In this document: in pieces, positions 4,342 through 11,628 of the stretch
How positions within the stretch are numbered: the stretch's first letter is position 1
Layout of the letters: the number at the start of each line of letters is the position of its first letter
Origin: Minisyncoccota bacterium
GTDB taxonomy: Archaea; Nanobdellota; Nanobdellia; Pacearchaeales; GW2011-AR1
Length of the DNA stretch: 64,000 nucleotides
Direction of reading: 5' to 3'
NCBI GenBank assembly: GCA_035453125.1
Contig: DAOTCN010000002.1
Span: forward strand, 72,289 to 136,288
The notes under the pieces: generated by a model
Seen by the model: only the letters and a program-made list of their open reading frames with translations
Told to the model about the DNA's origin: nothing
Databases searched by the model: none
Translations under genes and position numbers: made by a program

Positions 4342-4429
4342 TATTTCAAGCGAAGCATTGGAATTCTCAGGATTCCTGTTGCAATTCAGGTTAGCCCTAT
4401 CTGAATTCGCATTAAACCTCGCGACACTT
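4342..4429 (-). repeat. DGR template repeat (TR)
   Basis: Ungapped alignment to 4743-4830 (offset 401). 19 mismatches, all at minus-strand A. Reads AAY-rich in the target frame (SVARFNANSDRANLNCNRNPENSNASLEI). Confidence 0.95.
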
Positions 4430-4713
4430 GTAGCAAATTCATCATTTAGCACCATATATTCAGATTTTACTCAAAACTTACCCAAGGTTTTTCATTGTTA
4501 CTAACTGTTTATATTGAATTTTATGGCTTTATTAATATTAATTGATATTATTTAACATTTAAAGCACTAATGAATTTACATGTAGCCCAAGTTTCCTAGG
4601 GAATATATGTTAAATTCAAATAGTTTAACAAAATTTAGTTAATCTAATTTATAGATTAAAAAAGAATTATAATTTTATTCTAAATTAACTTGAAAAGTAA
4701 TTTTTCGGCGCGT

Positions 4714-7875: not shown

Positions 7876-8712
7876 ATGCCAAGAGTAAAAAAAACAGATC
7901 ATAAAAGAGAACCATCAAAAGCAAAGATTGAACTTGTTAAAAAAATAGCTGATGCTATTGATAAAAACCAAACTATAATGTTTGCTTCAATAAAAGGATT
8001 ACCTGCAAGACAATTTCAAAGAATTAAAAAAGATCTTTCAAAGAATACTCAAGTGTTTATATTAAAGAAAAATATGCTTATTAAATCAATTGATTTATCA
8101 AAAAAGAACAATAAGTCATTAAAAGAATATATAAAAGAAGATATTGCTGTCTTAATCTCAAATATTGATGCTTTTGAACTAGCAACATATCTTGCCGAAA
8201 GTAAAGTTCCTGTAAAGGCTAAAATTGGGCAAATTTCTGATAAAGAAATTAATGTTGAACCAGGACCAACAGAACTTGTTGCAGGTCCAGTAGTTAGTGA
8301 ACTAGGATCATTAGGAATAAAAATTGAAATTAAAGGGGGGAAAATTGAAATTAAAGAAGCAAAAACAATTGTAAAAGTAGGGCAAGCAATAAGCGAAGGT
8401 GCTTGTGGGATTATGAGTAAACTTAACATTATGCCTTTTTCAGTTGGTTTTATACCTTTAGTAGCTTATGACTCAAAATCAAATAATATTTATACTTCAC
8501 TTGTAATAGACAAAAAAGGAACATTAAAAGAATTAAAAGAAATTTATTCTAAAGCTCTTGGACTTGCAGTTTCAAGAGAATATATATGTAAAGAAAGCTT
8601 AAAGTATATTTTATTAAAAGCAATAAGTCATGAAAAAGCTTTAGAAAATAAAGTTGGAATAAACTCAAAAATTAACGAACAAGATAATGCTCTAAATACG
8701 GAGAAAAATTAA
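7876..8712 (+). CDS. rpl10: 50S ribosomal protein uL10 (P0)
   Basis: GPTELVAGPVVSELG, GKIEI motifs; follows uL1. Confidence 0.95.
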   Translation: MPRVKKTDHKREPSKAKIELVKKIADAIDKNQTIMFASIKGLPARQFQRIKKDLSKNTQVFILKKNMLIKSIDLSKKNNKSLKEYIKEDIAVLISNIDAFELATYLAESKVPVKAKIGQISDKEINVEPGPTELVAGPVVSELGSLGIKIEIKGGKIEIKEAKTIVKVGQAISEGACGIMSKLNIMPFSVGFIPLVAYDSKSNNIYTSLVIDKKGTLKELKEIYSKALGLAVSREYICKESLKYILLKAISHEKALENKVGINSKINEQDNALNTEKN

Positions 8713-8717
8713 ATAAA

Positions 8718-9011
<294 letters not shown>

Positions 9012-9131: not shown

Positions 9132-9139
9132 TTTATAAT
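9132..9139 (+). promoter_or_regulatory. TATA box (TTTATAAT) for a leaderless LAGLIDADG transcript
   Basis: Ends about 21 nt before the ATG at 9160, preceded by a purine-rich BRE-like run. Confidence 0.55.
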
Positions 9140-9159
9140 CTAAGACTGTTTTATAGATT

Positions 9160-9765
9160 ATGCAAAAAGGTGAAAAATTTGCTTTATTTCTTGGAATGTT
9201 AAGTGGAGATGGATGTCTAACTATTGTTCATAATGGAGAGGGTTATAGGGATTATCCAATAAAATTTTGTAATACTAATAAACAACTTGTTTATAAATTT
9301 CAAAGTTTATTATTTGATGTATTTGGTCTTAAAAGTAAAATTTTAGTTGATAAAAGAGTTAATAAGAAAGATTTATGGTATATTTCAAAATGTTCAAAGG
9401 AAAATTATCTAAAAATTAAAGAAGTTGGCTTTCCCGAAGGAGTTAAGAGAGATGTTCTAATAATTCCAGAAATAATCAAAAATGGAACAGATAAAGAAAA
9501 ATTAGCATTTATCCTTGGATTTCTAATAACTGATGGTTGTTTAAGAAAAAATAATTCTATCTTATTTCACTCGGGAAGCAAAGTATTTTTAGAAGAGTTG
9601 TCTATGCTAATTAGTGAGTTTACTAACACTCAAAAAACAATAAAAGAGTATACTCAAAGAGAGAAATATAAATCATATCAGTTAAATTTAAATAAAGAAG
9701 AAACAAAGATTTTATTATCTGGTATGCCGACGTGGGACAATGGTACTCCACTTGCCTTGAGCTAG
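9160..9765 (+). CDS. Free-standing double-motif LAGLIDADG endonuclease-family protein overlapping tRNA-Ser
   Basis: Motifs FLGMLSGDGCL and FILGFLITDGCL; no intein splicing motifs. The last 13 codons (MPTWDNGTPLALS) and the stop span the tRNA 5' exon and intron start. Confidence 0.88.
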   Translation: MQKGEKFALFLGMLSGDGCLTIVHNGEGYRDYPIKFCNTNKQLVYKFQSLLFDVFGLKSKILVDKRVNKKDLWYISKCSKENYLKIKEVGFPEGVKRDVLIIPEIIKNGTDKEKLAFILGFLITDGCLRKNNSILFHSGSKVFLEELSMLISEFTNTQKTIKEYTQREKYKSYQLNLNKEETKILLSGMPTWDNGTPLALS

Positions 9766-9830
9766 TATTAAAATAGTAAAAGATAGCAAGCTTCCTTCGG
9801 GATATCCCGGTTCGATTCCGGGCGTCGGCG
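9726..9830 (+). tRNA. tRNA-Ser(UGA) with a 23-nt intron at 37/38 (9762-9784)
   Basis: Acceptor GCCGACG/CGTCGGC, discriminator G, anticodon stem CTTGC/GCAAG, anticodon TGA at 9758-9760, long variable arm TCC-TTCG-GGA, T arm CCCGG-TTCGATT-CCGGG; T-run follows. Confidence 0.93.
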
Positions 9831-9921
9831 TTTTTTATTAATAAAACTTTTAATAAAATTATTTTTCAAAAAGATTTTTATATAGTGATTTAGTATTTAT
9901 TATAGTTATTAAAAGAGAAAA

Positions 9922-11628
9922 ATGGAAATATTTAATTCTTTATTATCAAATATACCTAATAATTTTTTAGTTCTGTTTCAAATAGGTATTATGATAATTC
10001 TTGCAGGAATATTTGCTTTTGTTTTTAAAATTTTAAAACAACCTAAAATACCTGCTTATATTATTGCAGGAATATTACTTGGACCCCTTGTTTTTGGAAT
10101 AATCAAAGATAATGAAGTTATAAGATCTTTATCTGAAATCGGTGTTGCTTTTTTACTTTTTTTTGTTGGACTTGAAATTGATCTAAGTAACTTAAAAAGA
10201 GTTGGAAAAGTTGCTTCATTTACTGGAATTATTGAAGTGATTTTAGTGTCAATTGTTTCTGTTGTTATATCTTTATTAATGGGATTTGAAAATATAGAAT
10301 TAGTCTACATTTCCGGAGTAATTGCATTTAGTAGTACTATGATTGTAATCAAGTTACTTGCTGATAAAGAAGAAATAAACACTCTTCACGGAAGAATTAT
10401 TGTAGGTATTTTATTAATACAAGACATAATTGCAATAATAATACTTACTGTTTTAACAACCAATCTAAGCTTAAGCACTTTATTTTTTTCTTTAGGTAAA
10501 GGCATATTGTTTATCATACTTGGAATTTTGATTGGAAGAATGTCTCATCCAATACTAAAAGAATCTGCAAAATCAAATGAACTTCTTTTGCTTGTACCTC
10601 TTGCTTTTTTATTTATTTATTCAATTAGCGCTTATCTTTTTGGTCTTTCAGTAGTTGTTGGTGCTTTCTTTGCAGGAGTTGTATTAGCGAATTCTCCTTT
10701 TAAAATAGACATTAAAGGGAGAATATATCCTTTAAGAGACTTTTTTGGAGCTATTTTATTTGTTTCATTAGGAATACAGTTATTATGGATACCAAAAGAA
10801 TACTTAGGTTTATTCATAATTCTTATGGCTATTACTTTAATAATAAAACCAATTATAATATTCTTAACTGTTAGATTATTAGGATATACTAATAGAACTG
10901 CTTTTTTAACTGGAAATTCTTTAGGACAAGCAAGCGAATTTGCGTTAATAATTCTAACACAAGGTTTAGCAATGAATCACATAAGTTCTAATATTTTTAG
11001 TGTTCTAGTTTTTGTAACTATAATAAGTATGTCTGTTACAAGTTATACAATAAAACATGAACAAAAAATTTACAAAATTTTCTCTTACCCTGCTAAATTA
11101 TTTGAACATCTTCCAAATAAAAAGGAACAGTTAAACTATCAAAGTGAAAGTAAAGGTGGAGTGATTATTCTTGGGTGTCATAGAATGGGTACTCTTTTAT
11201 TACAAAAATTTTCTAGTATGAAAGAAGATGTTCTGGTAATTGACTTTAACCCTGATATAATTAAGTCATTAATGAAAAAGAAAGTACCTTGTTTATATGG
11301 TGATTACGCAAATCCTGAGATAATGAGTAAAATAATAAAAATAAATCCTAAAATGTTAATAAGTACAATTCCAGATAAAGAAGATAATATCAATTTGATA
11401 AGAAAGTTAAAAAAACTGAATAAAAATATATCAATAATTGTTGTTGCAGAAAGAATTCATGAAGCATTAGAATTATATAAAGAAGGAGCAGATTATGTTA
11501 TACTCCCAAAAGTTATAAGTGGTGTTTATATAGATGACTTAATAGAAAAGATAACTAAAGACAAAAAAAATTTAAAGAAAAATCAGATTGATTTCTTAAA
11601 TAAAATACACTATTATTTATATAAATAA
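9922..11628 (+). CDS. CPA2/Kef-type cation:proton antiporter with C-terminal TrkA-N (RCK) domain
   Basis: Many TM helices, GVAFLLFFVGLE, FSSTMIVIKLL, LGQASEFA; C-terminal ILGCHRMG...GDYAN. Confidence 0.92.
   Translation: MEIFNSLLSNIPNNFLVLFQIGIMIILAGIFAFVFKILKQPKIPAYIIAGILLGPLVFGIIKDNEVIRSLSEIGVAFLLFFVGLEIDLSNLKRVGKVASFTGIIEVILVSIVSVVISLLMGFENIELVYISGVIAFSSTMIVIKLLADKEEINTLHGRIIVGILLIQDIIAIIILTVLTTNLSLSTLFFSLGKGILFIILGILIGRMSHPILKESAKSNELLLLVPLAFLFIYSISAYLFGLSVVVGAFFAGVVLANSPFKIDIKGRIYPLRDFFGAILFVSLGIQLLWIPKEYLGLFIILMAITLIIKPIIIFLTVRLLGYTNRTAFLTGNSLGQASEFALIILTQGLAMNHISSNIFSVLVFVTIISMSVTSYTIKHEQKIYKIFSYPAKLFEHLPNKKEQLNYQSESKGGVIILGCHRMGTLLLQKFSSMKEDVLVIDFNPDIIKSLMKKKVPCLYGDYANPEIMSKIIKINPKMLISTIPDKEDNINLIRKLKKLNKNISIIVVAERIHEALELYKEGADYVILPKVISGVYIDDLIEKITKDKKNLKKNQIDFLNKIHYYLYK

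Follow-up and report, generated by a model that had tools for sequence, protein, structure and literature searches.

The window analyzed here, a stretch of 64,000 nt from contig DAOTCN010000002.1 of an archaeal assembly (872 kb, roughly 90% complete), has a G+C content of 26.9% and carries a free-standing open reading frame (ORF) for a LAGLIDADG endonuclease whose 3' end lies inside a tRNA-Ser(UGA) gene of the same strand. The ORF and the tRNA share 40 nt, stop codon included: G9726, the +1 nucleotide of the tRNA, also serves as the last base of codon Met189, and the stop of the ORF occupies nucleotides 2 to 4 of the tRNA intron. The ORF begins 566 nt upstream of the tRNA and lies outside the 23-nt intron; it is thus not encoded by a bulge-helix-bulge (BHB) intron. 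An original prediction, drawn from the letters of the window before any database was consulted, had placed the TATA box, the start codon, the tRNA and the stop at the very positions collected in Table 1, with the stop inside a 23-nt intron, and all of its coordinates were correct.

Table 1. Features of the endonuclease–tRNA-Ser(UGA) locus, followed by the genes on either side (coordinates of the window)
Feature	Position	Strand	Remarks
TATA-like box TTTATAAT of the endonuclease gene	9132-9139	+	20 nt upstream of the ATG
Free-standing double-motif LAGLIDADG endonuclease ORF	9160-9765	+	201 aa; residues 1-188 folded in the model, 189-201 tRNA-encoded tail
LAGLIDADG motif 1 ALFLGMLSGDGCL	9181-9219	+	catalytic Asp17 at 9208-9210
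LAGLIDADG motif 2 LAFILGFLITDGCL	9505-9543	+	catalytic Asp125 at 9532-9534
Probable TATA box of the tRNA, TTTAAATA	9687-9694	+	codons Leu177-Asn178-Lys179; 31 nt from tRNA +1
Promoter-to-tRNA spacer	9695-9725	+	also codes for the last protein helix, residues 179-187
tRNA-Ser(UGA) 5' exon	9726-9761	+	positions 1-37; translated by the ORF as PTWDNGTPLALS
tRNA intron	9762-9784	+	23 nt, site 37/38; holds the ORF stop TAG, 9763-9765
tRNA-Ser(UGA) 3' exon	9785-9830	+	long variable arm, T arm, 3' strand of the acceptor stem
T6 run	9831-9836	+	read from the sequence; putative function
rpP0 gene	7876-8712		left flank of the slot, with rpP1
rpP1 gene (ribosomal stalk protein P1)	8718-9011	+	conserved left flank of the variable slot
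Kef-type transporter gene	9922-11628	+	right flank; kept in several genomes of the genus

The translated ORF matched a single Pfam family, LAGLIDADG_3 (PF14528), over two stretches (E = 1.7e-16). Pfam detected neither a Hint/intein domain nor an added helix-turn-helix (HTH) domain in it, and with its own ATG the ORF does not have the makings of an intein. A group I intron was not among the Rfam matches in the window. These searches agreed with the earlier view of two intact LAGLIDADG motifs standing outside any intein or group I context. In an alignment of 36 sequences, which also served as the input to AlphaFold (AF2), 34 residues were invariant, among them G16, D17, and G18 of motif 1 and T124, D125, and G126 of motif 2; Asp17 and Asp125 are the last acidic residues of their motifs. 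The model obtained was confident, with a predicted local distance difference test score (pLDDT) of 91.2 and a predicted template-modeling score (pTM) of 0.89, and it showed the order alpha-beta-beta-alpha-beta-beta-alpha twice, that is, the pseudo-symmetric LAGLIDADG arrangement. Its last structured element is the helix formed by residues 179–187 (pLDDT ~89–94), in which E181 and the L-L residues are conserved across the alignment. Residues 190–201, which are encoded by the tRNA, scored only 54–61, and the model places this tail outside the fold.

The best structural matches returned by Foldseek were archaeal intein endonuclease domains (PI-PfuI and TliVMA) and I-DmoI, with template-modeling (TM) scores of 0.72–0.77, followed by I-Tsp061I. 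WhiA and the maturases ranked lower, WhiA with 12–13% identity. For four pairs of sequences, the ratio of nonsynonymous to synonymous substitutions (dN/dS) was 0.12–0.18, with dS near saturation. More than 150 homologues were found at 52–75% identity, all of ~190–220 aa and mostly from Pacearchaeota/Nanoarchaeota-type metagenome bins. We regard the endonuclease as an intact enzyme under purifying selection, predicted to cleave DNA at specific sites.

The tRNA-Ser(UGA) gene matched the Rfam tRNA family (RF00005) with 43.9 bits (cut-off 29; E = 2e-8), complete over model positions 1–71. It carries the long variable arm of archaeal type II tRNAs and an insertion of ~23 nt in the anticodon loop. 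This loop reads CUUGAG, the 23-nt insert, then A, which gives a UGA anticodon and an intron at the canonical site 37/38; in orthologous tRNAs devoid of an intron, the loop is CUUGAGA and the ARAGORN label is Ser(tga). In the minimum free energy (MFE) fold, the intron region formed a 3-nt 3' bulge (AU, A), a central helix of 3 bp plus G.A, and a 5' bulge (AG, C). From this one MFE fold, the intron is predicted to adopt a relaxed BHB structure, with its splice sites in the two 3-nt bulges. Both EndA and an RNase P RNA (104 bits) are encoded in the genome. The T6 run just past the tRNA is likely an archaeal terminator for the tRNA and for any read-through mRNA. Across 13 loci, acceptor stems were paired at 7/7 positions yet different in sequence, indicating that the orthologous tRNAs are functional genes.

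Neither default ARAGORN nor Rfam at the gathering threshold, both run on the whole window, reported this tRNA, and ARAGORN with introns allowed detected it but put the intron in the wrong place. BLAST of the assembly returned one tRNA-Ser(UGA) and one tRNA-Ser(GCU) gene. As no isoacceptor with a GGA or CGA anticodon was detected in the ~90% complete assembly, this organism may depend on the endonuclease-linked tRNA-Ser(UGA) alone for reading UCN codons. Two ARAGORN calls, 'Ser(tga)' at G000 C2:305771-305892 and 'Ser(gga)' at C1:77215-77337, were examined as possible additional tRNA-Ser genes and rejected (G and L numbers denote the genomes and loci of this analysis; G000 is the genome of the window, C1 and C2 are its contigs). 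They are class I tRNAs with misplaced introns, probably Ile(UAU) and Ile(GAU), respectively. Intron-bearing tRNAs of this genome therefore require checking by hand. Unusual introns were also noticed in relatives. In L050–L053, L057, and L058, which come from other orders of the class and all lie behind an orthologous endonuclease gene, tRNA-Ser(UGA) seemingly has two introns, the first placed between D arm and anticodon stem and the second after position 37. In L041 (G101), a genome without the endonuclease, its intron is 113 nt long.

A TATA-like box was present 19–22 nt ahead of the start codon in nearly all orthologues. This spacing fits a leaderless endonuclease mRNA, with TTTATAAT as its putative promoter in the window. 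The other box, TTTAAATA, is inside the ORF, in codons that close the last beta-strand. Among the overlapping orthologous loci that were measured, 12/13 had such an internal box, located 24–33 nt upstream of the tRNA +1. Other tRNAs of the genome have the same consensus 22–26 nt upstream, and some at 29–32 nt. Empty alleles, that is, tRNA-Ser(UGA) loci lacking the endonuclease gene, carry TTTAAAAA, ending at about -24. Given its recurrence in orthologues and its match to the boxes of other tRNAs, TTTAAATA is most probably the own promoter of tRNA-Ser(UGA), a caveat that the original prediction had already voiced. Initiation from it would leave a leader of a few nucleotides, removable by RNase P. 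Read in this way, the cassette consists of its own TATA box, a leaderless ORF, the tRNA TATA box within the L-N-K codons, the spacer that encodes the last helix, and tRNA-Ser(UGA).

This layout was found well beyond the window. A same-strand tRNA-Ser(UGA) came after the orthologous ORF in 15/15 complete loci, at 40–75% identity and in several orders of one class of DPANN archaea; besides the window, 7 of these loci came from its order and a scan of genome contigs, and the 8 others belong to further orders of that class (40–46% identity). With ~35 tRNA genes in 0.87 Mb, the chance that the 3' end of a given ORF meets a tRNA is far below 1%. The geometry could be measured in 14 orthologous loci, and in 13 of them the ORF overlapped the tRNA, by 15–73 nt. 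In the remaining locus, L009, the ORF ends at a stop of its own, 34 nt short of the tRNA, and a separate TATA box is present. The overlap is thus not a one-off stop loss, an eventuality that the original prediction had taken into account. At the protein level, translated tRNA 5' sequence formed the C-terminus of 114 of the 120 database homologues surveyed, with tails read as '..WDNGT..' in 68/120 and as '..TMVL..' in 46/120. The tRNA +1 fell on codon position 1, 2, or 3 depending on the orthologue. In intron-less alleles, the ORF stop was in the anticodon stem, and 11 homologues, at tRNAs without an intron, were read on as far as the T arm.

These comparisons indicate that the ORF lacks a stop of its own and terminates at any in-frame stop that the tRNA or its intron provides. 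Since the frame, the length of the tail and the position of the stop all vary, the tail and the presence of a stop in the intron appear incidental. A likely reason for the overlap is that the last helix needs ~9–10 codons past L-N-K, while the promoter geometry permits ~24–33 nt. We infer that the overlap is an incidental consequence of packing.

We then compared loci with and without a homing-endonuclease gene (HEG) at tRNA-Ser(UGA), hereafter HEG+ and HEG-. True orthologues were present in 7 of the 201 genomes of the window's order and in 10 of a 401-genome sample of the phylum, that is, in ~3% of genomes; in its own genus, they were present in 2/9. All 7 HEG-less genomes of the genus have tRNA-Ser(UGA), which lies behind rpP0-rpP1 in 6/7, and the order rpP0-rpP1-[slot]-tRNA-Ser(UGA) is maintained in HEG+ as well as HEG- genomes of the genus. 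In the latter, the slot from rpP1 to the tRNA is a mere spacer of ~100–185 nt (G127, G063, and G150) or is occupied by a small ORF (G196), a membrane ORF (G168), or a peptidase C39-like gene (G101). Empty alleles with their flanks kept do exist, therefore, as the original prediction had supposed in suggesting the comparison. The endonuclease gene is accessory, seated in a slot of variable content that extends from rpP1 to the tRNA promoter.

The borders of this slot could be located in two genomes of one genus (g24, not that of the window), G079 (HEG+) and G136 (HEG-). Homology between them ended past rpP1 and restarted exactly 39 nt upstream of the tRNA +1. The segment between the homology blocks holds the endonuclease gene in G079 and a GrpB gene in G136. 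G136 retains the TATA box and the spacer, 40/47 (85%) identical and still encoding QLSLNNVEKDLLLS, and 4 of the 6 within-codon differences between G079 and this remnant were synonymous. On so few differences, the G136 allele is no more than suggestive of a footprint left when the gene was lost or replaced except for its 3' end with the probable promoter. It was the only true ORF remnant, as a relaxed tblastn search of the empty alleles of genus g1 matched nothing but the tRNA-encoded tail.

A stub of the tRNA 5' end was not found upstream of the HEG+ loci of the family by local alignment of the first 36 nt against 1.3 kb of upstream sequence. Insertion by end replacement, in which the cassette would bring a spare tRNA 5' end, was rejected on this basis, stubs being absent from every HEG+ locus and present in two empty alleles only. 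In these two, L038 (G063) and L039 (G150), a 15–16-nt copy of the tRNA 5' end (GCTGACATCGCATAG[T]) lies 55 nt upstream; L039 shows another, partial copy near -20. An earlier insertion that involved a duplication of the tRNA 5' end may have left these copies behind. A role of the intron as an immunity device, by way of collaborative homing, was also set aside: introns were present in 10/16 HEG+ alleles vs 2/7 empty alleles of the genus, which shows no clear association. A search for strain-level polymorphism through the exact rpP1 protein found no such protein on record. One truncated locus, L056 (G202:C23:208-561), matched over residues 1–118 and then turned into hairpin-rich sequence near the end of the contig, and is possibly a disrupted endonuclease gene.

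The association of LAGLIDADG genes with tRNAs was not restricted to tRNA-Ser. In the order, paralogues with 25–36% identity have their 3' ends at or inside tRNA-Leu(UAG), Val(UAC/CAC), Arg(UCU), and Thr(GGU) genes of the same strand. In a further subfamily (L012, L015, L020, L021, L026, L028, and L032), the overlap is convergent, with tRNA-Met(CAU) on the opposite strand in all seven loci. The tRNAs at the ends of paralogues were verified by Rfam. The window's genome itself has, outside the window, two more free-standing double-motif LAGLIDADG ORFs that overlap same-strand tRNAs, each with an N-terminal extension. The first (G000 C2:149945-150934, minus strand, 329 aa) runs into tRNA-Arg(CCU), and the second (G000 C2:230760-231680, plus strand, 306 aa) into an intron-bearing tRNA that looks like tRNA-Gln, from an anticodon stem-loop UUG read by eye. 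A link that holds irrespective of orientation points to a cause at the DNA level, such as a landing site or a homology arm, rather than to RNA processing. The first of two alternatives in the original prediction was a class of free-standing homing elements whose home is the leader of a tRNA gene, with further LAGLIDADG-tRNA pairs to be found; the recurrent overlap, the empty alleles, and the further pairs, of which relatives have several and this genome two, speak for it. In the literature, we found cases from rRNA introns, inteins, rRNA of the candidate phyla radiation (CPR), and phage Seg/Mob enzymes, and none of LAGLIDADG genes docked on archaeal tRNA genes.

Our favored interpretation, which we hold to be fairly probable, is that of a homing-endonuclease gene of the double-motif LAGLIDADG kind, I-DmoI-like, site-specific and free-standing, which has settled in the promoter slot of tRNA-Ser(UGA). 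It would belong to a family docked specifically 5' of this tRNA within one class of DPANN archaea. In HEG-less tRNA-Ser(UGA) loci, the enzyme would cut within the 5' part of the tRNA or else at, or close to, the junction that precedes the promoter. Recombinational repair would then transfer the gene to the cut locus, where the conserved promoter and the tRNA would provide the downstream homology arm. Deletions would have to leave the 3' end of the gene intact, because this end contains the probable promoter of the only UCN-reading tRNA-Ser detected.

A more tentative proposal is that promoter capture serves as a persistence strategy. The family might have absorbed or replaced the promoter of an essential, seemingly single-copy tRNA, such that a clean deletion became impossible. 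If so, the deletions tolerated would be those that keep the last ~39 nt, as in the G136 allele. Combined with homing among close relatives, promoter capture would explain why a constrained endonuclease stays on one tRNA across class-level divergence, why it is present in a few per cent of genomes, and why DPANN LAGLIDADG branches are each bound to one tRNA species.

Several observations do not sit well with a homing element. The endonuclease tree followed GTDB family labels, with one clade for f1, one for f31, and mild incongruence inside the latter. Long-range horizontal transfer was thus not seen, and vertical descent with many losses would fit the tree as well as homing among close relatives. 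Among the homologues found, there were no near-identical copies in different backgrounds and no relatives on viral contigs, leaving carriage by viruses unsupported. The 5' half of the HEG+ tRNA is intact and identical to that of the HEG- relative G127; if the target lay wholly within the tRNA, self-immunity would lack an explanation. A classical homing cycle predicts many broken copies, whereas L056 was the single one seen.

Some of these data would suit a domesticated host factor, inherited vertically and often lost, that acts at the tRNA-Ser locus or elsewhere, e.g., as a regulator of tRNA-Ser transcription or as a repair nuclease. Strong purifying selection, the 34 invariant residues, a tree congruent with family-level taxonomy, the near absence of pseudogenes in 17 loci, and a tie to one tRNA held over class-level divergence could all be cited for it. 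Yet such a factor would be expected neither in ~3% of genomes and 2/9 of the genus, nor at a slot that is elsewhere empty or filled with unrelated genes. Moreover, both catalytic Asp residues are invariant, while WhiA and many maturases have lost theirs, and there is no added HTH domain. Paralogues sit on many tRNAs in either orientation, and landing sites fit this distribution better than regulation does. Domestication therefore strikes us as unlikely.

We give still less credence to RNA-processing coupling as a selected trait. In this reading, whose mechanism goes back to the original prediction, selection would have kept the ORF without a stop so that RNase P or EndA could cut the co-transcript and yield a non-stop mRNA, thereby throttling or timing endonuclease synthesis according to tRNA processing. 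The ingredients are there. The ORF runs into the tRNA in nearly all measurable loci and homologues, no terminator lies in the ORF-tRNA interval, with the T6 run coming only past the tRNA, and the genome encodes RNase P RNA and EndA. Low expression is, as a rule, advantageous to homing endonucleases. However, neither the frame nor the tail length nor the stop position is conserved, the overlap varying between 15 and 73 nt, and in L009 the ORF has a stop ahead of the tRNA, which is served by a separate promoter. In the tRNA-Met subfamily, the tRNA is antisense, so that its processing cannot touch the mRNA. Promoter geometry and the need for the last helix provide a simpler account of the overlap. 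As a selected design, the coupling is thus not supported, though it is possible that RNase P and EndA cut read-through transcripts as a physical side effect. Finally, spurious ORFs are common in AT-rich genomes and the tRNA did escape default tools, but the idea that the ORF lost its stop by accident, or is itself spurious and merely lies beside a tRNA, is refuted by the significant Pfam match, the confident fold and the more than 150 homologues with the same layout.

Elsewhere in the window, an RT-16 RNA (Rfam RF03019), a motif associated with reverse transcriptases, was matched at 4425–4601 on the minus strand with 74.8 bits (cut-off 50). It was the sole Rfam match at the gathering threshold across the window.

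Archaeal homing endonucleases are known from rRNA introns and inteins, and a set of free-standing LAGLIDADG genes docked on tRNAs would add a mode of life. Such elements could drive variability of tRNA loci in DPANN genomes, in the form of introns, stubs and replaced promoters. The family would further offer natural enzymes whose targets are long and highly conserved. The locus provides a clean case of probable dual coding, in which a TATA box is translated as Leu-Asn-Lys, and it bears on annotation, as default tools mis-call both the tRNA and the end of the ORF.

Among known systems, I-DmoI and I-Tsp061I are, like the enzyme described here, archaeal proteins of ~190 aa with two motifs that each carry a catalytic acidic residue. 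The fold is the same, as judged from the TM scores to I-DmoI above, while sequence identity is only ~20%. The genes of both lie inside BHB introns of rRNA, and it is the intron that is mobile, whereas the present ORF lies upstream of a tRNA and has its own putative promoter. WhiA-type regulators differ in another way: they have lost the catalytic acids and have a C-terminal HTH, while here both Asp residues are kept and an HTH is absent. The 'tRNA punctuation' of mitochondria, with its same-strand overlaps of protein genes and tRNAs, shares with our locus a coding region that abuts or overlaps a same-strand tRNA, whose processing would set the 3' end of the mRNA. In mitochondria, however, transcripts are polycistronic and stops are completed by polyadenylation, whereas here the probable tRNA promoter is inside the ORF and the tail is not conserved.

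In collaborative (trans) homing, a free-standing endonuclease works together with a neighboring intron, as for mobE and I-TevIII (PMC2790892). The resemblance is that a free-standing endonuclease gene adjoins an intron-bearing gene, and that the intron could split the site and confer immunity. The introns of that system are group I introns, whereas those found here are predicted to be protein-spliced BHB introns and are absent from 6/16 HEG+ alleles. The cyanophage enzyme F-CphI is reportedly another example of collaborative homing.

A last comparison is with the Seg/Mob free-standing homing endonucleases of phages T4 and T6, of which SegB is located in a tRNA gene cluster (PMC2790892, PMC13096335). 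These are GIY-YIG or HNH enzymes of phages, as opposed to a LAGLIDADG enzyme on a cellular archaeal chromosome. They show neither an ORF-tRNA overlap nor an embedded tRNA promoter, and their branches are not tied to single tRNA species. What they have in common with the present family is a free-standing gene between conserved genes, patchy among relatives and, for SegB, associated with tRNAs. Seg/Mob genes are inferred to spread through cleavage of a nearby conserved site followed by co-conversion, and it is this route that we propose as a parallel for the endonuclease docked on tRNA-Ser(UGA).

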